Below are positions 23,891 to 53,106 of a stretch of 64,000 nucleotides of DNA, in pieces. A model generated the notes under the pieces. That model saw only the letters and a program-made list of their open reading frames with translations, made no database searches and had not been told where the DNA came from. How positions within the stretch are numbered: the stretch's first letter is position 1; each line of letters starts with the position of its first letter. This DNA is from Minisyncoccota bacterium (GTDB lineage Bacteria > Patescibacteriota > Minisyncoccia > Phycocordibacterales > PALSA-1337): assembly GCA_041666915.1 (NCBI GenBank), contig JBAYFZ010000001.1, positions 201,086 through 265,085 of the forward strand, in the 5' to 3' direction. The translations under genes were made by a program, and so were the position numbers.

Positions 23891-24487
23891 TTAAACAATA
23901 GTCGGCTGACACGTCTTAAATGCGAGGACCTCAGAATTGCGCATCAAAATGGTCTTGTTTGTAGTATACGACAAACCTTTGTTTGGCTGATTCTCAAAAC
24001 CAAGATAGACACAACTTACCTTTCGCGCACGAACTTCTTTGATGGCTGGTTGCAGATCAGAATCGGAACTAGCCAATATAATTTCTTTTACAGATTCGTC
24101 ACAAGCCATTGTTACCATATCAACAGCAATTTTTACATCCACACCCTTTTCTTTAAAAACCAAGACTTTCTTTCCATTCAGACCTTCTTCCATTTGCCCC
24201 CTGACGCGTCCACGTAAAACCACTTCAAAACCCTGATTTTCCAGATGAGTCTTCAACAAACGTTGCTCTTCTATGAGTTGCTGGGATTTTTCCCTGCTTC
24301 CTTCATGTACTTTAATCTGGGCAAAATAGAAGATCTTACGATCAATAACAAAACCTTCCAAGACTTTCACAAATAATCCACGAAAATCAAATTCATGCCA
24401 TACTGGTTTGTTGTTTTTAGTCTCACTGAAAACGGCCCTTATTTTGCCCTTGAGATTCTCCCCATCAATTAACAGGACTGTTTCCAT
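23891..24487 (-). CDS. NYN-domain (LabA-like) putative RNase (operon member 1)
   Basis: LIDGENL, KGVDVKIAVDMV and ILASSDSDLQPAIK match NYN/LabA catalytic motifs. Confidence 0.65.
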   Translation of the reverse strand: METVLLIDGENLKGKIRAVFSETKNNKPVWHEFDFRGLFVKVLEGFVIDRKIFYFAQIKVHEGSREKSQQLIEEQRLLKTHLENQGFEVVLRGRVRGQMEEGLNGKKVLVFKEKGVDVKIAVDMVTMACDESVKEIILASSDSDLQPAIKEVRARKVSCVYLGFENQPNKGLSYTTNKTILMRNSEVLAFKTCQPTIV

Positions 24488-24675: not shown

Positions 24676-26073
24676 ATGCCCACATATTTTGTTTACTGCC
24701 GCAAATCTACCGAAGCCGAGGATAGGCAGATTTTATCAATTGATTCTCAGATCAATGAACTCAAACAGCATGCCATAAAGAAAGGAATCAAAATTGTAGC
24801 TGTTCTGACCGAGGCCAAATCAGCCAAGGCACCGGGACGTCCGGTGTTTAATTCTCTAATGGAACGGTTGTACCGTGGTGAAGCTGATGGAATCCTGTGC
24901 TGGAAATTGGACCGTCTTGCTCGTAACCCTGTTGATGGTGGTGCTATCATCTGGGCCATGAAGGAACATGGGGTAAAAATTATTACCCCTTTACAGACAT
25001 ACGGACAATCCGAAGACAATGTCGTCTGGATGTACCTGGAATTTGGCATGGCACAGAAATACGTTGATGACTTGAGCCGAACCGTAAAACGGGGTTTGCG
25101 GGCGAAAGCGGAATCTGGTTGGTTTCCAAGCGTTACCCCGCCAGGATACATGAATTGTGAGAACGACGAGGGACGCAATGTTATCGCCAAGGATCCCAAA
25201 CGATTTGATATTATCCGAAAGTGCTGGGACTTAATGCTTACTGGAAAGTACACACCTCCAGAAATCAGAGAAATTGCCAATACCGCATGGAGGTATACAA
25301 CAAATCATGGAAATCCTCTGGGGCGTAGCACCATTTACAACATCTTTTCAAATCCCTTTTACCATGGCACTTATGAATATCCAAGAGGAAGTGATAACTG
25401 GCACACTGGTCGGCATACCCCTATGATAACAGAGGAAGAATTTGATACGGTCCAACACATTTTATCACGATCTCGCCATATGCCACGAAACCGCAAGGTG
25501 TTTGCCTTCACTGGAATCATCCGGTGCGGTGGATGCCAAGGCGCTGTGACAGCAGAGGAAAAGCATCAGATTATATGCCCAGTCTGTAAATTGAAGTTCG
25601 CTTACCGCTCCAAAGAGCAGTGTCCACGATGCCAGACAGCTATCGCAAACATGGTAAAACCAGTCCACCTCACTTACACCTACTACCACTGTACCAAATC
25701 TTCCAATCCCGCCTGTACCGAGCTCGGAGTTGAGCGAAAAGAATTGGAACGTCAGATCATTCGCCACCTTGAAGGTGTGCATCTTCCCGATTTTCACAAC
25801 CACTGGGTTAACACCTGTTTTGGACGTTTGAGCACAAAACCGGATACCACCAGCATGTTGGCAGTCATTACCCAATCATTCCCCAATAGCAGTCCAGATG
25901 TTCAACGAGAAATTGTTACATCAATATTTTCAGCAATAGTTCTGAAGGATAGGGAGATTGGCGTTTCGCTCAAAATTCCCTTTTCATTCCCTAACAAGGC
26001 TGAGGTGCCCACCCCGCTTGACCAAAAATCCTTTACTCAAAAGACGTTGCAGGAGCACATGTCCAGATCGTGA
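24676..26073 (+). mobile_element. Large serine recombinase (phage-type serine integrase/transposase)
   Basis: The N-terminal resolvase domain is YFVYCRKSTEAEDRQ...LDRLARN. A recombinase domain and a Cys-rich zinc ribbon (CGGCQG...CPVCK...CPRC) follow. Local GC is about 47-50% against about 33-35% around it. Confidence 0.8.
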
Positions 26074-26352
26074 CGATTGGTAACCTAAAGCCGACGAAAG
26101 TCCCCTTACAGAAGGAAAACTACCAGTGGCAGCATATTGCTGACGTAAAACTTGAAGAGCTTCCTTTTCTGGTTCGGTGAGTAAATCTTGAACTGCTTTT
26201 TCCTCTTGATTTTTCACACTAGCAGCAATGTGGCAGAGACCAAGGAACCGTACACCCATGTCATGAATTTCTTCATCAGTAGATTCTATTCCTGATTTTC
26301 GTTGGATTTTACGCAGATGCTTAAACGTGCGAGTGGAAAGTATTGGGATCAT
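25984..26352 (-). CDS. Small wHTH protein with a LexA-N-terminal-like DNA-binding domain (possible excisionase/regulator); start uncertain, 3' end overlaps the recombinase gene
   Basis: LTEPEKEALQVLRQQYAATGSFPSVRGLSSALGYQSSRSGHVLLQRLLSKGFL resembles the LexA_DNA_bind fold. Confidence 0.35.
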   Translation of the reverse strand: MIPILSTRTFKHLRKIQRKSGIESTDEEIHDMGVRFLGLCHIAASVKNQEEKAVQDLLTEPEKEALQVLRQQYAATGSFPSVRGLSSALGYQSSRSGHVLLQRLLSKGFLVKRGGHLSLVRE

Positions 26353-26421
26353 TTTCCCAATTTAGCAATATCCTGGCATCATAAACAAGCCTGGACGCCG
26401 ATGGTGTTTACTTTTGGACCC

Positions 26422-26468
26422 CTGTTTACTTGCCTGTACCGTTTATTACCTAGGATCAAAGTAAACAG
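26422..26468. other. Candidate serine-integrase att site: 9-bp perfect inverted repeat CTGTTTACT ... AGTAAACAG with a 29-bp spacer; a third direct TGTTTACTT copy lies at 26405
   Basis: Read directly. The 47-bp size and symmetric arms fit serine-integrase att sites. It lies between the recombinase islet and tRNA-Gln. Confidence 0.3.
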
Positions 26469-26536
26469 ACATGAAAAAAATGGCTTAACAAAAGCCCAGT
26501 TACGAACATCAAATATCCAAGAACTGTATCAGTGTG

Positions 26537-26607
26537 CTGGGGGACAGGGACTCGAACCCCGATAATCAGGACCAAAACCTGATGTCCTACCATTAGACGA
26601 TCCCCCA
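26537..26607 (-). tRNA. tRNA-Gln (anticodon TTG)
   Basis: The cloverleaf was folded by hand: acceptor UGGGGGA/UCCCCCA, D stem GUCU/GGAC, anticodon stem UCAGG/CCUGA with loop UUUUGGU, and T arm CGGGG-UUCGAGU-CCCUG. CCA is not encoded. Confidence 0.8.
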
Positions 26608-28312: not shown

Positions 28313-29305
28313 ATGAAAAAATTAATTGACACGATGATTACTATATTCATCGTAACCATCCTTGCTTCCCTTGCGCTAGACGTAAGAGGAGCTGGTTCAA
28401 CATCCAGTATCGTCATAGATTCATCTGGGTTACCCAACAAACTGCCAATGGGTGACGAGTCAACATTCAAAAGTTATATCGTAGGTAAAAACAACCTCGG
28501 AATGAACGTCTGGGTTAGTTTGGGATTCCAAAATGATAATGATAATTGGACACCTTCCAGCTGTGGAAAATTTTCATATGGATACGATTCCTATGATGAT
28601 TTTCTAAATGATGTAACCAATGCTGCAGTGAAAGTACTTGAAAGATACTACACAAATGGTATAGCCTATCCTCCTGGGAGAAAGTTATACGCAATGCTTG
28701 AAGTTACATACTTCAACGACAGACCCGATACCCCATCATATCCAATAGGTCTATGGGTATACAGAGAGGTTGGTACTTTGGAAATGGTTACTCCTATGAC
28801 ATTCAAGGAAGTATTCTCTCTTCCATCAACTGCTACAACAAATCTAGTTGAAAAAGCAGTGATTGCAATACCCGCTCTTGAATATCTAAACATCACCGTA
28901 GAGATGCCAACCGGTGTAGGGACATTCAGTTGGTCCAATTCTGTCGTCAAAACTTCGGCATTGTGGCCAAGTAACCCTTCAAACCAAACAAGGCCTGGTT
29001 ATCTATCTATGGACAAATGGCTTTGTGTTGGCAATTATCCAGCAAGGATCACGATCAGGACAACCAACGGGTCGCTAGCGGTATACACTCATTATGGTGA
29101 CAGGATAAAACCGCCAAAAATGAGCATGCCTGACAGCAAAAATCTTGCAATCAATACCCCCAGAGGTTCAAATACTAAAATCTTTTCATCAACCGATTTG
29201 AAGAACTGGACATTGTTCGGTACTACAAATTCAGGTGGAGTAAATAACATTACACTACCAGTAAATGGCAACGGAAAGACGTTTTATAAGGCTTCTTGCG
29301 AGTAA
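28313..29305 (+). CDS. Secreted hypothetical protein (330 aa)
   Basis: The signal peptide is MKKLIDTMITIFIVTILASLALDVRGAG. No family was recognised. Confidence 0.5.
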   Translation: MKKLIDTMITIFIVTILASLALDVRGAGSTSSIVIDSSGLPNKLPMGDESTFKSYIVGKNNLGMNVWVSLGFQNDNDNWTPSSCGKFSYGYDSYDDFLNDVTNAAVKVLERYYTNGIAYPPGRKLYAMLEVTYFNDRPDTPSYPIGLWVYREVGTLEMVTPMTFKEVFSLPSTATTNLVEKAVIAIPALEYLNITVEMPTGVGTFSWSNSVVKTSALWPSNPSNQTRPGYLSMDKWLCVGNYPARITIRTTNGSLAVYTHYGDRIKPPKMSMPDSKNLAINTPRGSNTKIFSSTDLKNWTLFGTTNSGGVNNITLPVNGNGKTFYKASCE

Positions 29306-29337
29306 GATTGATTGTGAGCAAAATGTATGGAATACAC

Positions 29338-29375
29338 AAACCCTCAACACGATGAATGTTGAGGGTCTTTTGTTA
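29338..29375. terminator. Hairpin AAACCCTCAACA-loop-TGTTGAGGGTCTTTTGTT between convergent genes
   Basis: Read directly. It belongs to the same stem family as the terminators at 18837, 61680 and 63358. Confidence 0.5.
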
Positions 29376-29381
29376 AAGACA

Positions 29382-32300
29382 TCAGAACGTTGTTTCTGCT
29401 TCACCTCCGAAAGAACTGAAAACATTCAAAATAGCTGTTGCAGTTTTTTCTGGATAGGTAACTTGATCGCCACCAGAAGTACAAGTAATCTTGAAAAGAT
29501 AAGTACCCCTAACCGAAGTATTCATACTACTTACATTAGAATTCGCATCTACATTATCATCTGTTAAAACACTACCCCATCCATCTGGATCATTAGAAAT
29601 TGAACGTGAACAATTGTAACCCTCTGTATTAGTAGGACTCCAAGCCGGTAAAGTATTTTGCCATGCCAAACCAAAGCTATATCCTTTCTTTACAGTATAT
29701 TCAGTCCTTTTGGAACTATCGGCAGTGCTACCATTACTACCAATCCAGAGATTGAGTACTGGTTCTACGACTGGTGTAGATATTCTTACATCTTGCCATG
29801 AACTACAGTTATTGGTTTCATCTGACTCTGTGACCGTGCCGGCAAAAGAAAAGTCTTGACTATCAGCACAGACTTTTACAGACTTGACACCATCTGAAGT
29901 AAAAGTATACCGGCCTAAGATAGGTGCATTTTCACCACTTCCCAAACCATCAGGAGAGATGGCTACCATAGGAATAACGTCCGCTACAGTACCACCACCA
30001 CTTGTCTGCTCTGCTACTTGGAAGAAGTTCCTAAATGAAGAATCTACACTGACACCACCAATATTTGAAATATTTGCATAAAAATAAATCAGCGAATCTT
30101 TAGCCCCACCAGAAGAAGTTAGCATGACCGCAGTAAGATCTGGTAATGAAGTTACAGGCGCAGTCACCTTCACTGAAGTCGTAGCATATTCAGTGGTACT
30201 CCAATACGTATCACTTTGTGGATAACCGGTAATTTGGGTGGTCTGTCTAATCGCAACATCTGCTATATAATCCCCTGCCGTAGGATAATTACAATAATAA
30301 ATATTTGACAAAGAACTGACACTCCATACAGGATCAGTATTATGGCATTTGAATGCGTAATACATATTGTTTACACCCCAAGATGAAGCTGTAAGTTTAA
30401 CATTAGTCATACCACCAACCTCTCCAGTGGAAGGCGTGGCAGACAAACTAGGAATAGCTATGTGAACATCGGTACTTGCATTAGCAGTACCCCCCGGTCC
30501 TATACAGGTCACACTAAATGAACTATCTGTATACATAGCACCAGTACCAGCAAAAATAGTATTATCATAATTATACGGTGACATAGTACCCGTTGGAATA
30601 AAATATCTGTCACATGATGTTGTATTTTGGGAAGAACCAAAGAAAAATGTTCCTTGACCCTTCAAAACATAACTAGGGTTGACTGTCATCTCAACCGTAG
30701 GAGGTGGGTTGGCCGTAACAGTTACAAAAGCGCGGTCTGAAGAAGGCCAAGGAACAGTCCATGTACAAGTCATATCAAAAGTAGTTGTTACATTCAGAAT
30801 ACTGGTCTGTAAACCGGTAGTATTGACAAGAGGTACTTCTGTACCTTTTGTATAAGGTGCAGGCCAATTATCACCTGCAAAACATTTGTCTGGATTTTGA
30901 CTAGTTGACCAAAACAGATTGGTGTAATTACCAGTGTTAACTGAACTAGGTGTAGCTGTTATGATAACATTTCCATTTGGAGGACTATTGACCAAAGTCA
31001 CCGTCACACTATCGCTTGCAGATCCTTCAGGACCAGTACAAGTTATTTCATAAGTCTTTGTAGCTGTTATAGGACCAGTACTTACACCAACATAATTTGA
31101 TGTACCAGTATAACTTGCTGGCCAAGAAGCTCCTGTAACACATGATGTGGTATTTTCAGATACCCAAGAAAGTTGGGATGAAGAATTGTAGGTCACCGAC
31201 AAAGGGTTTGCACTTAGATCAACAGTCGGGGTACCTGTAGGCGGAGGACTGGCTTGAGAAGAACCGACCGTGATGACTGTCACAGGCGTTGCAATTATTC
31301 CCGATTGCGTAACTTTGGCAGAAGCTGTATATGTACCATTTGTTGTATAAGTACAAGAAAAAGAATTTGAAGATTGTGAAAGACTCCACATATCAATATC
31401 CTTACATTTAAACTGATAAGTGATAGCACCGATAGCAGTTCCACCTGTACGTGTAGCGGTGAGAGTATTATCCAAAGTCGCACTACCACTAGAAGGACTT
31501 GCAACAAGAGACGCCGTGAGAGCTGGAGTATTAACATCAAAAGGAATAGCGTGTGTACCAAACTGATGTGGTAACCACTGCCACCCTACTCCATCTACAT
31601 AATCAAAAGTATTACCCCAATCTTGACCATTCAAAATATGAGAACCTGCAGTGACACCGTACGTATCATAAAAAATTAAATTACCTACACAAGAATAAAC
31701 AGCCTGAACCACACTTTCTTGAGGTCCACCATCAACATCCGCAGAAATACTTAGGGCTGTATTACTATTGAAATTACAACCACCACTAACATCAGATACG
31801 GATCCAGAAGCGATTATTGATTCTCCAAAATCATAAGTGGATTTATTGAGGCCTAGATTGTAAACATAAGTATAACCAGCAACGTTATAGATCTTTGTAT
31901 CTGCTTTAACCATATCCACACCACCAAACATATACAAACCAAAAACCAAAAATAATACAAATATACTTTTCAACTTTTTATTTATATGTACTCGCAACAT
32001 GATGACTATCATTATCAATATAAATCCAACAATTATTGTGATAGTTTCAGCTACAGGCCAACTGGCTTTTACTTCCACAGGCGTTGTTACTTTTGCTTCT
32101 TTCGTATCCAAGATTTGTGACTTGCCACCTGATTTGGCTTCAAAAGATATATTAGCCTTAGGATCATTACAACCTGTTACTATTGGTACAAGAGCATTGA
32201 TAACCAAATTGTTTACACCCATCATCTGTTGACCACAGACAACTCCTTCTCGGTTAGTTACAGTGACTTTGATTACTTGATTTTCAAGACTTGTACCAGC

Positions 32301-33257
32301 ACCCAAACGTGAATCTGGAAAAGTATCAGCCGATGGTGTCAAGAAAATTTGTAATTTTGCAGTATCTCCTGTTTTATATGAAGATTTGTCAAAAACGATA
32401 TTTTGAATAGTACCACTTGCACCACGTAGAACGTAATGGAATCTGGCTGTATTGGAAGTAGTGGTACTACTGGTCAATGAAAAAAGTAGATCGTATGATT
32501 GTGGTTGCAGAGCTTTTGGTAATTCAAATGACAATGTAGAGGTACCAGCTTTTACTGTAACTGCCGTGACTACAGGTTCAGTCTGATTTACTTTATTACC
32601 ATAAATAGTTCTGTTATAGGTTTCAAAAACTGGCTTGAGAATAGTAAAATCACTAAATATTTTACAGTTAGCTATCAATACCTCATTTTGATTTATATCT
32701 ACACCCTGATTTGGTTTATACCCTTTTTGTGGTTTTTCGCCTTTTACACTTAGACTACATGTGTCTGATATGATCTCAATTCTTGGTAGCTTGTTACTTT
32801 GCAAAGTGACATCTCCTAGACTTGCCAAAGCCAAAGGAAGACCTCTATCATTGTTACTTTTAATCCAGAGTTGATATATACCACCAGAAAGTGCTACTGG
32901 TGATGTATATATAATGTTTTTCTGAATTGTTTGATTTGGACCCAACTCTATAATTTCGTCGTATACCTTTTCATCTGCGGTACTTCCAAACGGAGGTTTA
33001 GTCAGTACTACAGAATATTTGATACCTGATTGAACTCCTTCGCGATTGGAGAGATCAAAAGAGAGCCTAAGGGTATTTTCTCTTTGAGAGACTATTCTGG
33101 CATTATAGATATTGACAGTAGCAACTGTAGCGCTGATCGCTTTTGAAGAAGTGGAGGTGTTGGACGGTATACTTTGCGCAGAGACGTCACTTCCAAAGAA
33201 CAATACACCTAATGTAAAGAATGCTAACGAGATATTCTTTTTCATTTCTATATTCAT
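29382..33257 (-). CDS. Giant Ser/Thr-rich surface protein (1291 aa) with Ig/PKD-like repeats, an internal TM plus signal-peptide-like segment, and a conserved C-terminal domain
   Basis: The N-terminal signal peptide is MKKNISLAFFTLGVLFFGSDVSAQS. The internal segment is ITIIVGFILIMIVIM-LRVHINKKLKS-IFVLFLVFGLYMFGGVDMVKA. It has repeated Y(Q/A)FKC...YTASAKV modules. Its C-terminal 120 aa are homologous to the C-terminus of the next gene. Confidence 0.7.
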   Translation of the reverse strand: MNIEMKKNISLAFFTLGVLFFGSDVSAQSIPSNTSTSSKAISATVATVNIYNARIVSQRENTLRLSFDLSNREGVQSGIKYSVVLTKPPFGSTADEKVYDEIIELGPNQTIQKNIIYTSPVALSGGIYQLWIKSNNDRGLPLALASLGDVTLQSNKLPRIEIISDTCSLSVKGEKPQKGYKPNQGVDINQNEVLIANCKIFSDFTILKPVFETYNRTIYGNKVNQTEPVVTAVTVKAGTSTLSFELPKALQPQSYDLLFSLTSSTTTSNTARFHYVLRGASGTIQNIVFDKSSYKTGDTAKLQIFLTPSADTFPDSRLGAGTSLENQVIKVTVTNREGVVCGQQMMGVNNLVINALVPIVTGCNDPKANISFEAKSGGKSQILDTKEAKVTTPVEVKASWPVAETITIIVGFILIMIVIMLRVHINKKLKSIFVLFLVFGLYMFGGVDMVKADTKIYNVAGYTYVYNLGLNKSTYDFGESIIASGSVSDVSGGCNFNSNTALSISADVDGGPQESVVQAVYSCVGNLIFYDTYGVTAGSHILNGQDWGNTFDYVDGVGWQWLPHQFGTHAIPFDVNTPALTASLVASPSSGSATLDNTLTATRTGGTAIGAITYQFKCKDIDMWSLSQSSNSFSCTYTTNGTYTASAKVTQSGIIATPVTVITVGSSQASPPPTGTPTVDLSANPLSVTYNSSSQLSWVSENTTSCVTGASWPASYTGTSNYVGVSTGPITATKTYEITCTGPEGSASDSVTVTLVNSPPNGNVIITATPSSVNTGNYTNLFWSTSQNPDKCFAGDNWPAPYTKGTEVPLVNTTGLQTSILNVTTTFDMTCTWTVPWPSSDRAFVTVTANPPPTVEMTVNPSYVLKGQGTFFFGSSQNTTSCDRYFIPTGTMSPYNYDNTIFAGTGAMYTDSSFSVTCIGPGGTANASTDVHIAIPSLSATPSTGEVGGMTNVKLTASSWGVNNMYYAFKCHNTDPVWSVSSLSNIYYCNYPTAGDYIADVAIRQTTQITGYPQSDTYWSTTEYATTSVKVTAPVTSLPDLTAVMLTSSGGAKDSLIYFYANISNIGGVSVDSSFRNFFQVAEQTSGGGTVADVIPMVAISPDGLGSGENAPILGRYTFTSDGVKSVKVCADSQDFSFAGTVTESDETNNCSSWQDVRISTPVVEPVLNLWIGSNGSTADSSKRTEYTVKKGYSFGLAWQNTLPAWSPTNTEGYNCSRSISNDPDGWGSVLTDDNVDANSNVSSMNTSVRGTYLFKITCTSGGDQVTYPEKTATAILNVFSSFGGEAETTF

Positions 33258-33300
33258 ATATTTTACCTCGATTCAACTCCAATTGTGAACAATGAAATAA

Positions 33301-34581
33301 TCATCTCTCCCCGCCACCACCCGAGGAACTGATCACTTCCAACACAGCTGAAGCTGTTTGTGTATCATCGGGACTTCCTCCTTTATTTTCACATAGTATC
33401 TTAAAGACGTATGTACCAGTATCTGTGGTATTCATTGGAGAGAAAGTTCTACCATCAGAATTGACATTACCATCCCACACAGAAGACCAATTAGAACCAC
33501 TAGCAGTTGGTATCAAAGTATTACACTGGTAACCTTTACCAGTATTTTGATTGAATTTTGGATTTAATGCATTACCCCATTTCAAACCAAAGGTATAACC
33601 TTTCTTAACTGTATATGAATTTTTATTGGCACTATTACCGGTACCGCCAATCCAGAGATTGAGTAAAGAATCCGTAGTGGTAATCTCTTTTGTAGGTGTT
33701 GACGTTACACCCTCTCGTACAACCTTTGCTGAAGCTGTGTAATTACCAATATCTAGACCGGAATAATCACAATCTGCATAAACTTTGAAAGTATCTGTGG
33801 TAGTAATAGGGGTACTCCATGAAGAATCTGTTTCCTTACATTTGAATTGATAAGTGATGGGACCTACAGCCGTACCACCAGAAACACTAACAATGAATGT
33901 TCTACGGAGACTCCTCAAGCCTATCTGATAATCAACAGTCATGACCGTACTCAAAGTTGGAGTTGAGACTGGATTTGGAGTAAGTGGCAACGATGAATAA
34001 TCTGGATTGAATTGCAACCAACCGATAACATTTCCTCCCCAAGCATATCCGCGTAACATCTTGGTTGAAGCACCACCAACAATAACATCGTCCATATGTA
34101 CGCCCGATGATCCTCCGGCAGTAGAAGGATGATTTGCTCCTGCCAACTCTATCCAACCATCCCAACCATCAGTCCTACTGACCATACTGCTACAATCACC
34201 ATTTGCTGTACCTGCACAAGCACGTGCCCAACCTCTCACTTCTCCAGTCGTTGAATCTATATTTGCAGGAACTCCAGAAGCACCATTTGAAGGATAGCCT
34301 GATAAACCACCAAATTTTATCCAACCAATGTTAGACGACCAAGCGTAACCCGTGATATCACCACTCACCGAACCAACAACTACGGGAGTATTGTTCGGAG
34401 CAAGATCCACCCAACCGATATTTGACGACCAAGCCCAATTTCCTAAACTAACAGAATCTGCCCTAACAGATGTAGCAGGTTTTGTGATAATAGTAAGAAT
34501 CGTAACCGTAATAAACAAAATCAATACTGTCGTAATGGTAGCTAAGACATTTCTCCTCATTATTGAAGTGTTATTAGGCAT
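33301..34581 (-). CDS. Surface protein (426 aa) with 3x (Y/W)AW(S/G)xN(I/V)GW repeats, a PKD-like module and the shared C-terminal domain
   Basis: The TM/signal is MRRNVLATITTVLILFITVTILTIIT. The three repeats are WAWSSNIGWVDL, YAWSSNIGWIKF and YAWGGNVIGWLQF. The C-terminus NLWIGGTGN...GTYVFKILC aligns with NLWIGSNGS...GTYLFKITC of the giant protein. Confidence 0.65.
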   Translation of the reverse strand: MPNNTSIMRRNVLATITTVLILFITVTILTIITKPATSVRADSVSLGNWAWSSNIGWVDLAPNNTPVVVGSVSGDITGYAWSSNIGWIKFGGLSGYPSNGASGVPANIDSTTGEVRGWARACAGTANGDCSSMVSRTDGWDGWIELAGANHPSTAGGSSGVHMDDVIVGGASTKMLRGYAWGGNVIGWLQFNPDYSSLPLTPNPVSTPTLSTVMTVDYQIGLRSLRRTFIVSVSGGTAVGPITYQFKCKETDSSWSTPITTTDTFKVYADCDYSGLDIGNYTASAKVVREGVTSTPTKEITTTDSLLNLWIGGTGNSANKNSYTVKKGYTFGLKWGNALNPKFNQNTGKGYQCNTLIPTASGSNWSSVWDGNVNSDGRTFSPMNTTDTGTYVFKILCENKGGSPDDTQTASAVLEVISSSGGGGER

Positions 34582-34689: not shown

Positions 34690-35718
34690 CTATTTTTCTA
34701 ATTTTAAATATTCTTTTACAACCTTTTCAACTTCTTTAGAATTCTTACAATTCATAAGTTCAACACGAAGCTCTTTTGCACCATCCCAACCAGAAACATA
34801 AGCTTTGAAGTGTTTCTTCATAACATCAAAATTCTTCATCTTGACACTACCCTTTTTGAAAGTTTTTTCAAAGAGTTTTGTATGTTCAACCATGATTTTT
34901 AACCGAACCTGTTTTGTTGGCGTCTTTTCTGAAGAAAAATCAGTAATTTCACTAAATTTTGGATCCTTGGAAAAAAACCATGGTCTACCAAATATGCCCC
35001 GACCGATCATAACTCCATCACAACCATACTTTCTGACCATTTCTTGTGCCATTTCTAGAGAATTAACATCTCCATTTCCTATTATCAAAGTCTCTGGAGA
35101 TATTTCATTTCTCATTTTAATAATCTCTGGCATAACATCCCAATGAGCTTTCACCAAAGATAACTCTTTTGTAGTGCGCAGATGAACAGTTAGAGCTGGA
35201 AGCTTTTGCTCCAAAAGCAATCTAATCCAATCCAAATCTATTTTTGTATAACCAATCCTAGTTTTAACTGAAATTGGGATAGAAGATCCTTCCCTAGCCA
35301 TTTTTAGTACTTCAAGAGCTATTTTTGAATTTTTAATCAATGAAGATCCGCCTCCTTGTTTCAAAACTGCCCGATCTGGGCAACCCATGTTGAGATCCAA
35401 ACCATCAAAACCAAGTTTACTAACCAATTCTGCAGTACCCTTCATGACTTCTGGATGTCCTGTAAAAAGTTGAGCTACAATAGGTTTTTCTTTCTTAGAA
35501 AATTCCAAATTATGTAACAATTGTTTCCTCCCTTTGGACATGAGTCCATCTGCTGAGACGAATTCTGTCCACATAACATCAGGTTTACCGTACTTAGCTA
35601 TCATCTGGCGAAAAGCGTAATCTGTAACATTGGCCATTGGTGCTAACACAAAAAACGGCTTACCCAAGCCTTTCCAGAAGTTCTTCTCTTTTTTCTTATC
35701 CAAAACCTTCATAGTCAA
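34690..35718 (-). CDS. tRNA-dihydrouridine synthase
   Basis: The TIM-barrel Dus motifs are MANVTDYAFRQM, LDLNMGCP and the catalytic Cys region. Confidence 0.85.
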   Translation of the reverse strand: MTMKVLDKKKEKNFWKGLGKPFFVLAPMANVTDYAFRQMIAKYGKPDVMWTEFVSADGLMSKGRKQLLHNLEFSKKEKPIVAQLFTGHPEVMKGTAELVSKLGFDGLDLNMGCPDRAVLKQGGGSSLIKNSKIALEVLKMAREGSSIPISVKTRIGYTKIDLDWIRLLLEQKLPALTVHLRTTKELSLVKAHWDVMPEIIKMRNEISPETLIIGNGDVNSLEMAQEMVRKYGCDGVMIGRGIFGRPWFFSKDPKFSEITDFSSEKTPTKQVRLKIMVEHTKLFEKTFKKGSVKMKNFDVMKKHFKAYVSGWDGAKELRVELMNCKNSKEVEKVVKEYLKLEK

Positions 35719-52143: not shown

Positions 52144-53106
52144 TTATTTCTGTGCCAATGAATGTGTTGGTAGACCTTCGGCGTAAATACGCTGAACTTC
52201 TGAAGCAGTAAGACTCTTGCCTGCGAACATGACTTCATCGTAATAACCACCGGCTACCCAGTCATTGTTATAGGAAAGCAAAATATATTTAACATTAGTC
52301 ATATTACCCGTCGCAAAGACATCAGAAGCCGTTACCTGTTTTCCATTTATATACAAAGAATAACTAGAAGTCGTAGTATCAATTTTCTTTACTGATACAG
52401 CAAGATGAGCCCACTGATTTGATTTGATACTAAAAGCAACATCCCCTAGATAAGCAGAAACAAATGGCCTAATCGTATTGACACTTGAAACTGAATCATA
52501 TTGTGCATATAAAGCAAAAGTCGAAGCGTTATCAGCATTACCAACACCAAACATCATACCCGTAAAACTTGTTCTATGACTTGTTGGTTTAAACCAAAAA
52601 CTAAAAGAATAATCTCCGTTACTAAAATTAATTAAATCGGAAGTTGAGACAAACTTAAGTCCATCAACAAAAGGAGATGCTGCTATATTACCGAAATTAT
52701 TACCCCTTTTATACAAATCTGTATCTCCTGTAAAAGGAGATCCACCAAAAGACGAACTCAAATACACACCATTGATACACGTAAATGCAACTGAAGGACA
52801 AGGACCATTTACACCAACACTCTTTCCCAAATTAGGTACAGAATATAAACCAGCAGAGGTCCAACTTGCATTATCAAAATCAAAGTAAACCAAAGCATCA
52901 TCATACAGAGCCGACTTTGTGTTGTTGGCAAAAGTTTTGCCAGCTGCAACATATGCAGTGGCTCGAACATTACCCAGAGTAACCAACGTTATTGATGCCA
53001 ACGTTCCAATAATAGAAATAACCACCAAAAGTTCAATAAGAGTAAAACCTGAACTTCTGTGTTTGCTTGTAAAGTTAATGATTTTCATATGCTGTTGATT
53101 ATACAA
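52144..53106 (-). CDS. Type IV pilin-like protein (prepilin N-terminal methylation motif) with a LamG/concanavalin-like C-terminal domain
   Basis: G|FTLIELLVVISIIGTLASI has Glu at +5. Downstream is a beta-rich domain (DYSFSFWFKPTSH...), a LamG-like signature. The likely start is MKIINFTSK. Confidence 0.65.
   Translation of the reverse strand: MYNQQHMKIINFTSKHRSSGFTLIELLVVISIIGTLASITLVTLGNVRATAYVAAGKTFANNTKSALYDDALVYFDFDNASWTSAGLYSVPNLGKSVGVNGPCPSVAFTCINGVYLSSSFGGSPFTGDTDLYKRGNNFGNIAASPFVDGLKFVSTSDLINFSNGDYSFSFWFKPTSHRTSFTGMMFGVGNADNASTFALYAQYDSVSSVNTIRPFVSAYLGDVAFSIKSNQWAHLAVSVKKIDTTTSSYSLYINGKQVTASDVFATGNMTNVKYILLSYNNDWVAGGYYDEVMFAGKSLTASEVQRIYAEGLPTHSLAQK

Follow-up and report, generated by a model that had tools for sequence, protein, structure and literature searches.

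What do three adjacent genes for secreted proteins, here called A, B and C, do in a Minisyncoccota bacterium (Patescibacteriota; Minisyncoccia; Phycocordibacterales; PALSA-1337)? The genes lie in a stretch of 64,000 nucleotides (nt) of contig JBAYFZ010000001.1 (assembly GCA_041666915.1, positions 201,086 to 265,085), the whole of which is referred to below as the window. Gene A (28313..29305, plus strand; 330 amino acids, aa) is convergent with gene B (29382..33257, minus strand; 1291 aa), which lies 43 nt downstream of gene C on the same strand (33301..34581, minus strand; 426 aa). A first-pass annotation made from the letters alone had described three open reading frames (ORFs) of these lengths, and the same three genes are called in two public assemblies made independently, one an ENA contig of 450,810 bp and the other a Logan contig. 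Protein A is identical to the NCBI entry 'hypothetical protein WCS89_01310 [Candidatus Paceibacterota bacterium]', and protein C is identical, apart from an alternative start, to protein P0001 of a public JGI record.

Much of bacterial diversity belongs to the Patescibacteria (the candidate phyla radiation), which live attached to other microbes; to our knowledge, little has been learned beyond type IV pili about how they recognize and hold their hosts. On balance, we lean toward reading the locus as a Patescibacteria-specific set for cell-surface display and adhesion, in which conserved cell-proximal platforms bear variable immunoglobulin (Ig)-like distal domains. Domain anatomy, family sizes, conservation and synteny are directly observed; retention at the envelope, cleavage of B, binding of A to the terminal domain of B and C, and a role in adhesion are inferred from them. 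All coordinates given within B and C refer to the minus strand.

The W-hairpin module of protein C

Protein C begins with a hydrophobic helix (aa 10-31, from a hydrophobicity scan and an AlphaFold2 (AF2) model) followed by SVRA|DS, and this segment (aa 1-39; 34465..34581) is predicted to be a signal peptide or signal anchor; homologs of C have an AxA-type site a few residues ahead of the first hairpin. Behind it lies the W-hairpin ('GW') module (aa 43-193; 34003..34455), delimited by alignments A1 and A2 and an AF2 domain model. The consensus G-[WY]-A-W-S-x-N-[IV]-G-W-[IV]-x-F occurs four times per strongly conserved unit of ~150 aa. Three exact copies of (Y/W)AW(S/G)xN(I/V)GW stand in C, at aa 48-62, 77-93 and 176-193, and these had been recorded as three tandem repeats; the count of exact copies was right, but a fourth, degenerate hairpin (GWARAC...DGWDGWIEL, aa 115-148) belongs with them. 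The third hairpin of the unit is interrupted by a conserved Cys-Cys loop (GWARACAGT..GDCSS..SRTDGWDGWI in C), and GWARACAGT..C..RTDGWDGWI is invariant in the alignment. Hairpins are spaced 15-80 aa apart inside the unit. Modeled alone by AF2, the module has 12 strands, with pLDDT 86 and pTM 0.83; in the model of the whole protein (pLDDT 79 overall) it reaches pLDDT 85-94. Alignments and models together show that the four repeats, as hairpins, make up a single conserved domain of ~150 aa and do not form a loosely spaced tandem series.

A search with C returned 328 relatives, and those source names that identify an organism are all Paceibacterota or Parcubacteria. Among the 120 matches listed, every one covers C residues ~45-195 and only about one-third cover the Ig-like module or the terminal domain that follow. 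A profile search of 1.84 billion cluster representatives found 8,615 W-hairpin proteins at E<=1e-3, and 5,605 at E<=1e-10; the module is encoded in at least 472 species-representative genomes. Taxon-specific record titles among the 79 loci kept are all Patescibacteria, with a minority titled just 'uncultured bacterium'. C itself, as the reference row, fits the A2 profile across the full module, and P0001 matches it at E=1.6e-54. In most family members the module starts at residue ~25-45, straight after the signal peptide, and the domains C-terminal of it vary (NHL propellers, PKD, Big, Flg_new). Such a combination of one conserved module with many different C-terminal domains would be expected if the module were an anchoring platform for interchangeable cargo.

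The repeats had earlier been assigned to no obvious named family, and database searches agree. Pfam gave no match to the module in C (E<=1) or in 40 family members scanned singly, only scattered sub-threshold noise such as CBM_6 or ChW in single members. No NCBIfam model matched protein C, and the W-hairpin profile matched none of the PDB sequences. The Listeria-type GW module (Pfam GW, SH3b-like) had no Pfam match, and the 12-strand hairpin fold had no SH3 match; the choline- and cell-wall-binding repeats of Pfam CW_binding_1, which are ~20 aa long and in tandem, matched neither C nor the 40 family members. Foldseek searches for the fold gave the HphA barrel as the best PDB hit (E=0.22, TM 0.46) and a best BFVD hit at E=0.21, neither of them significant. 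Literature searches on the motif and on Paceibacteria surface proteins found no description of these families.

Beta-hairpin repeats rich in aromatic residues are characteristic of carbohydrate- or choline-binding repeats, and the module might be a lectin or carbohydrate-binding module (CBM) directed at host wall or environmental polysaccharide, a ligand binder and not an anchor. A weak match of one family member to CBM_6 (E=0.0019) and the arrays of up to nine hairpin stretches in some proteins point this way. We regard it as quite improbable: no CBM or lectin matches the module significantly in sequence or fold, the Trp residues may just form a hydrophobic core, and very high conservation over at least 472 species favors a constant self ligand over diverse external glycans. 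We retain the anchoring platform as the preferred reading of the module.

Some family members are unusual. In P0153, P0156, P0160, P0223 and P0225 the first one or two hairpins of the profile, and nothing more, are matched 6-9 times; judging by these matches, the five proteins contain long arrays of hairpin units, not the four-hairpin domain. Annotations of the unusual members are all empty or 'hypothetical protein'. Genomic contexts recur as well. Across loci L004-L082, the W-hairpin gene is directly downstream of a ~739 aa protein that is an aminoacyl-tRNA synthetase by its sequence (19 loci), divergent from NusA (13 loci), or adjoining translation-GTPase genes resembling EF-Tu and EF-G (8-10 loci). 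This small number of fixed contexts suggests several old paralogous W-hairpin positions per genome.

The giant protein B and the B-type family

Protein B is Ser/Thr-rich (23.6% Ser+Thr), as the first-pass annotation had observed. A W-hairpin module in B was ruled out by profile search, which gave no significant match. B homologs (28-29) align over the first ~490 aa only, at 31-44% identity, and the remainder of the homologs is variable, with NHL, Kelch or Ig domains. The conserved part consists of a signal peptide, ~370 aa with four invariant Cys, and two internal hydrophobic segments, the last present in 26 of 29 homologs. In B, the hydrophobicity scan places the predicted signal peptide at aa 1-28 (...SDVSA|QS; 33174..33257), and an N-terminal hydrophobic segment is found in nearly all homologs. 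The conserved N-terminal ectodomain follows (aa 29-397; 32067..33173), with C167, C198, C341 and C363 invariant in alignment A4. Hydrophobicity and alignment then delimit a region (aa 398-452; 31902..32066) made up of a transmembrane segment (TM1), a K/R-rich loop and a second hydrophobic segment ending 'VKA|DT'. The loop after TM1 is Lys/Arg-rich across the family (KKKK, KRKK; RVHINKKLK in B), and an AxA|(D/N)T-type site closes the second segment in 24 of 29 homologs by a loose pattern, ~20 of them exact, with the consensus AKADT. B thereby shows every feature by which alignment A4 defines the family: four Cys, both hydrophobic segments, the KKLK loop and VKA|DT.

The description of the trio as secreted proteins agrees with the N-terminal signal or anchor segments, the invariant Cys pairs and the all-beta Ig-like ectodomains, but it had left out the pair of hydrophobic segments at aa ~400-450 of B, a conserved internal membrane hairpin or signal peptide. 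Of these two possibilities, the membrane hairpin is the less likely, and the second segment is more likely an internal Sec-type signal peptide with a signal-peptidase I site, placed after a stop-transfer anchor. From its n-h-c anatomy and the AxA|DT site we infer a probable cut that would leave the base (aa 29-452) anchored in the membrane and release a stalk of ~840 aa running from DTKIYN to the C-terminal domain. An assembly or gene-fusion artefact is ruled out by the recurrence of the internal TM pair in the homologs and by the identical ORF in two assemblies.

The N-terminal module of B has no Pfam family above threshold and no PDB-sequence relative. Weak Pfam matches to DUF4131 (the N-terminal membrane region of ComEC) occur in 4 of 12 B-type proteins (best E=2.5e-4), and the B-type homolog P0121 has the NCBI label 'DUF2304 domain-containing'; both labels probably reflect only the hydrophobic hairpin.

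The variable ectodomain of B (aa 453-1163; 29769..31901), assigned by BLASTP and tblastn, is composed of Ig-like modules. It contains an Ig-like module in common with C (aa ~596-665; 31263-31472), three 'L.W.S...C...C.G' modules (aa ~670-935, within 29769..31901) and a CARDB-like module (aa 1039-1152; 29802-30143). The last matches CARDB (PF07705) over 98 of 101 profile positions with 20.5 bits and E=5.7e-4, below the gathering cut-off of 22.7 bits. B-type and W-hairpin genes were ruled out as obligate neighbors, being adjacent in 1 of 79 fetched loci, in L001 and in the window.

An Ig-like module and a terminal domain common to B and C

B and C had been credited with a common C-terminal domain of roughly 120 aa, and BLASTP aligns B 1165-1288 with C 304-425 at 43% identity over 129 aa (E=7e-20). 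The heading of the first-pass annotation had extended this domain to all three proteins; only B and C have it, and A shows no sequence similarity to either. The domain, called CT below, spans aa 303-426 of C (33304..33675; BLASTP, alignment, AF2 and hidden Markov model (HMM)), where the tail is ...SSSGGGGER, and aa 1164-1291 of B (29385..29768; BLASTP, HMM E=7e-29), where the tail is ...FSSFGGEAETTF. Within the window, CT is present in B and C only. Structure prediction, suggested earlier as a check for both the terminal domain and the repeats, gave the four-hairpin domain described above and, for CT (C residues 307-417), a seven-strand Ig-like sandwich with AF2 pLDDT ~90. Cys353 and Cys397 of C are nearly invariant in the family alignment.

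A second common block, B 537-756 against C 171-413 (BLASTP E=4e-16), holds the 'ITYQFKCK...YTASAKV' module (C aa 226-302; 33676..33906), modeled by AF2 as a beta-sandwich with pLDDT 65-84; tblastn with the module from C matches B at 31269-31532 (E=1.5e-12). It had been labeled PKD/Ig-like. Its presence in both proteins is borne out, and it is Ig-like by predicted fold only (AF2 and Foldseek), but the PKD label finds no support in Pfam, where no PKD-clan model matches B or C at E<=1; a PKD model does match one homolog, P0076. In Foldseek comparisons with the PDB, the Ig-like module and CT of C superpose on tandem cadherin and fibronectin type III (FnIII) domains, which are generic matches.

An iterated HMM search found CT in 132 proteins of the sets examined, which were gathered via W-hairpin homologs. 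CT thus occurs in other genomes of the lineage, in answer to the question of whether it marks a secreted-protein family, and it matches no well-characterized family. It is terminal in 120 of the 132 proteins; P0121 has a CT-like module at an internal position. Of 103 non-redundant CT termini, 97 have Glu in penultimate position; the last residue is Ile in 61 and Phe in 15. The exact E-(I/F) end closes 71 of the 103 termini vs 26 of 1,122 (2.3%) other ORFs of the same loci. By comparison with these sequences, the Gly-rich tails of B and C are local variants of a family-wide, position-locked ...E-(I/F)-COOH terminus, the tail of C (…GGGGER) retaining Glu at -2. A position-locked C-terminus implies that something reads the end of the chain.

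It had also been proposed that the Gly-rich tail is not a sorting signal of the LPXTG, PEP-CTERM or GlyGly-CTERM type, and this stands. A hydrophobicity scan found no C-terminal hydrophobic segment in A, B or C, no LPXTG-like motif lies near any C-terminus, and no NCBIfam sorting-domain model matches. Taken with the predicted fold, these results mark CT as Ig-like, and not as a membrane-sorting signal. NCBIfam and Pfam also gave no match to the C-terminal sorting domain of the type IX secretion system (T9SS).

In its distal half, B looks like a C-like protein: B 537-756 aligns with C 171-413, and the two CT domains are reciprocal best matches, which suggests fusion of a C-like gene to a B-type base in this lineage. 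Concerted evolution of the variable domains of neighbors was also considered and is weak at best, the reciprocal-best identity of the B and C CT domains being 44% vs 40-43% across genomes. In the L008 clade, CT domains group by gene position, and in L084 the neighbor of the B-type gene is a tandem B-type paralog.

Protein A and the reading of the CT terminus

What ties protein A to the cluster is not sequence similarity but conserved synteny and co-occurrence. Its family has no Pfam relatives (members scanned singly) and no PDB-sequence relatives (profile). Scans of A, B and C themselves against Pfam and NCBIfam left no match above cut-off. When the ORFs of 81 loci were clustered, the commonest specific neighbor of the W-hairpin gene was a secreted A-type protein of ~340 aa, found at 16 loci including the window, and a cluster weakly related to the A family was found at 7 further loci. 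A-family genes are always convergent and lie a median of ~72 nt downstream of the repeat gene. A CT-bearing protein is encoded in 16 of 16 A-type loci vs 16 of 65 loci without A (Fisher p=1.8e-8, not phylogeny-corrected). Four loci (L008, L012, L013 and L016) have a three-gene layout like that of the window, with a small W-hairpin-CT protein, a CT-bearing giant of >1000 aa and a convergent A; unlike B, their giants have a full W-hairpin module and no internal TM. The C-terminal end of the A family is conserved (...SS.DL..W...(F/Y)(F/Y)RA). We conclude that A is a genuine partner of CT-bearing proteins.

This partnership could be of another kind than the binding of a tip. CT might be a C-terminal sorting or attachment signal, whose ...E-(I/F)-COOH end A recognizes in order to export, process or fix cargo. 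Such a role would suit a domain that is strictly terminal (with the exceptions counted above), has an almost invariant Glu at -2 and a hydrophobic last residue, folds like an Ig domain, is encoded at every A-type locus, and occurs on cargo of differing upstream architectures, B-type proteins included. We nevertheless hold it to be rather improbable. The lineage is regarded as monoderm, and Sec signals are already present on the proteins; A has no conserved catalytic-type residues and belongs to no known family; the module of P0121 is internal, B departs from the tail rule, and no NCBIfam sorting-domain model matches. The reading of CT as a docking end is the one carried forward.

Link to type IV pili

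PilB lies a few kb downstream of the W-hairpin gene, on the same strand, in 11 of 80 W-hairpin loci, and PilC is present in 10 of those 11 (binomial p=6e-7 for PilB synteny against an assumed 2% background, with counts that ignore genome relatedness). The usual order at such loci is NusA | W-hairpin protein, another secreted protein, PilB, PilC and GFTLIE pilins. In L027, the W-hairpin-CT protein ends in ...EEI and PilB follows 35 nt downstream; the pilus-linked C-like protein of L067 ends in ...IIEI. Among B-type loci, the order NusA | B-type ... PilB, PilC, pilins was found in 4 of 6 examined, and in L001 NusA (minus strand) is followed by a W-hairpin protein, then a B-type protein, PilB and PilC, with pilins nearby. 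Since relatives of both platforms stand directly upstream of PilB-PilC-pilin genes, the most likely role of the set is attachment to a host cell or substrate. The first-pass annotation had put the trio forward as candidates for attachment or host interaction, and relatives that head type IV pilus operons lend this indirect support; function is still read from such context.

In the window itself, the cluster is not next to pilus genes, as PilB, PilC and NusA are missing there. A pilin-like ORF of 320 aa (52144..53106, minus strand) has the class III signal ...SGFTLIELLVVISIIGTL, from which it follows that the genome encodes type IV pilin-like proteins, though the window has no PilB or PilC. Pilins with GFTLIE thus occur both at this position and downstream of PilC in related loci. 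The type IV pilin or pseudopilin motif G|(F/M)TL(I/L)E was not found at the N-termini of A, B or C, and the beta-propeller family of PilY1 and Neisseria PilC (Neisseria_PilC) has no Pfam match in B or C.

The same synteny raises the possibility that B and C are pilus-tip or pilus-base adhesins, parallel to PilY1/PilC, and not wall-anchored proteins, the W-hairpin module and the B-type base docking on the type IV pilus or on minor pilins. Both families come first in PilB-PilC-pilin operons in several genomes, the W-hairpin-CT gene of L027 stops just ahead of PilB, and in both a conserved module is joined to a variable part. Yet ~69 of 80 W-hairpin loci, and the window, have no pilus genes nearby, and several paralogs per genome are possible, in other conserved contexts such as the aminoacyl-tRNA synthetase and elongation-factor genes. 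The proteins resemble neither PilY1 nor pilin families and lack a class III signal peptide, and the slot between NusA and PilB may merely tolerate large surface-gene insertions. We consider pilus-borne adhesins unlikely, if worth keeping in view, and prefer envelope platforms that act alongside pili. Exported Ig/PKD-fold proteins and type IV pili have been proposed as attachment tools in Paceibacteria-archaea parasitism (PMC10936435), in a paper that does not describe the W-hairpin, B-type, CT or A families.

Two further features of pilus-linked loci were noted. In L084 (8001-17023), the interval directly between NusA and PilB is occupied by two tandem B-type paralogs of 1540 and 1425 aa, which are 49% identical over ~1,140 aa and both contain NHL repeats in their distal parts. 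An unnamed secreted family is encoded just upstream of PilB in L020 (6303-8792), L033 (2308-3297), L054 (11070-12065), L067 (11723-13678) and L070 (11282-12151), the gene in L020 being two genes upstream of the W-hairpin gene; its members have the motif W(T/Q)xPxxxPPxxN right after the signal peptide, e.g. AQTSPSWQAPTGAPPAGN.

A model of the locus

In the model that we favor, C would be exported through Sec, and its mature N-terminus would be the all-beta module of four Trp-rich hairpins, ~150 aa in length. This module would hold C at the cell envelope (wall, surface layer or pilus base), with the Ig-like module and terminal CT projecting outward from it. B belongs to a second platform family. 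Its signal peptide and Cys-bearing ectodomain are followed by the stop-transfer TM, the K/R loop and a probable internal signal peptide with AxA|DT at its end, where signal peptidase would split B into the membrane base and an Ig-like stalk ending in CT. CT with its ...E-(I/F)-COOH terminus would be the docking end common to B and C, read by a common partner, for which the co-occurring secreted protein A is the best candidate. The B/C set may then work alongside type IV pili in attachment to a host cell or substrate.

Several observations weigh against this model. The W-hairpin module has no detectable similarity to known wall-binding domains, so that its role as an anchor is read from architecture. 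Just ~14% of W-hairpin loci are pilus-linked; in the 64-kb window PilB, PilC and NusA were not found near the trio, which sits amid housekeeping genes (Dus, a DNA polymerase III subunit). B-type and W-hairpin genes are side by side in just 2 of ~86 loci. The association of W-hairpin with CT (128 of 132) is partly a sampling effect of how the set was gathered. The tail of B (…EAETTF) departs from the E-x-COOH rule, and the A family has no invariant charged residues obviously suited to reading a carboxylate.

A stronger, joint claim would be that the W-hairpin module is a new-fold, Patescibacteria-specific domain for docking on the envelope or pilus that organizes much of the surface proteome, that the CT end is a new signal read by A, and that B-type proteins are 'polyproteins' split by signal peptidase. 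That all three hold together seems to us doubtful. As judged from sequence, the trio are good candidates for cell-attachment machinery of host-dependent ultrasmall bacteria. Naming and modeling these families would annotate thousands of 'hypothetical proteins' and would direct work on Paceibacteria enrichment cultures to specific surface proteins.

Gene arrangement and genomic surroundings

The 76-nt gap between the convergent genes A and B contains a terminator-like hairpin with a 10-bp stem (29340..29366, plus strand), and a promoter-like site with a 10/12 match lies upstream of C (34701..34730, minus strand), both from consensus scans only. With a gap of 43 nt between them and this site ahead of C, C and B are probably co-transcribed. 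The genes around the trio are housekeeping genes, for a DNA polymerase III subunit, Dus, D-Ala-D-Ala carboxypeptidase, SerRS, DprA and topoisomerase I.

About 2 kb from the cluster, the window encodes a large serine recombinase of 465 aa (Resolvase, Recombinase and zinc ribbon) within 24676-26607. It is overlapped on the opposite strand by a LexA-like helix-turn-helix ORF (25984..26352), and tRNA-Gln (26536..26607) adjoins. G+C is raised in this region, at 0.44 vs ~0.37, and the region may be a remnant or edge of an integrated element. NYN-domain proteins are encoded both near this recombinase (23891-24487, minus strand) and within the PilB-PilC interval of L083 (16717-17199), which is probably coincidental.

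Comparison with known systems

Multidomain, Ig-rich bacterial surface proteins are a familiar general kind. The W-hairpin family, given its size and want of any sequence or fold match, the internal signal peptide of B-type proteins, the E-X-COOH rule and the obligate partner A appear to be undescribed.

Like SLH, CWB2, LysM, the GW modules of Listeria InlB and Ami, and the pneumococcal choline-binding repeats, the W-hairpin module is repeat-built and aromatic-rich, is combined with swappable domains, and occurs on Sec-exported proteins with several paralogs per genome. Unlike them, it forms a single ~150 aa unit of four hairpins with a Cys-Cys loop at the mature N-terminus, has no sequence or fold similarity to those modules, and has been seen only in records labeled Patescibacteria. 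With the PilY1/PilC adhesins, W-hairpin and B-type relatives have in common a place in type IV pilus operons and the pairing of a conserved with a variable domain. They differ in showing no homology and no beta-propeller PilY1 domain, in the reversed order of the parts, the conserved one being N-terminal, and in that most W-hairpin family members are not beside pilus genes.

Compared with Ig-fold adhesins and cadherin-like or FnIII arrays, the Ig-like module and CT of C superpose on cadherin extracellular (EC) or gp130 FnIII domains, and B is a long Ser/Thr-rich string of Ig-like modules. The matches of C are at the level of the generic fold (E ~5e-4, TM ~0.15-0.3 over the whole model), and no Pfam Ig, PKD or cadherin family passes threshold in B or C. 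As in the T9SS C-terminal domain and in chaperone-usher systems, where the partner grips the terminal carboxylate of a subunit, CT is a terminal Ig-like sandwich with a constrained C-terminus and a co-encoded partner, here A; unlike in those systems, CT has no homology to their domains and A is of no known family. Neither T9SS nor usher components turned up in the window or in the loci examined, a genome-wide search not having been made.

For B-type proteins we know of no described bacterial family of the same design, with an internal signal peptide. The closest parallel is with flavivirus polyproteins, which are cut at internal signal peptides: in B-type proteins, too, an n-h-c segment ending AxA|DT stands mid-protein, after a stop-transfer TM and a positive loop. 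B-type proteins have no homology to SlaA or SlaB, but as in those anchor-plus-canopy pairs, a cut B would, to go by its sequence, yield a membrane base and an outer subunit in a 1:1 ratio.

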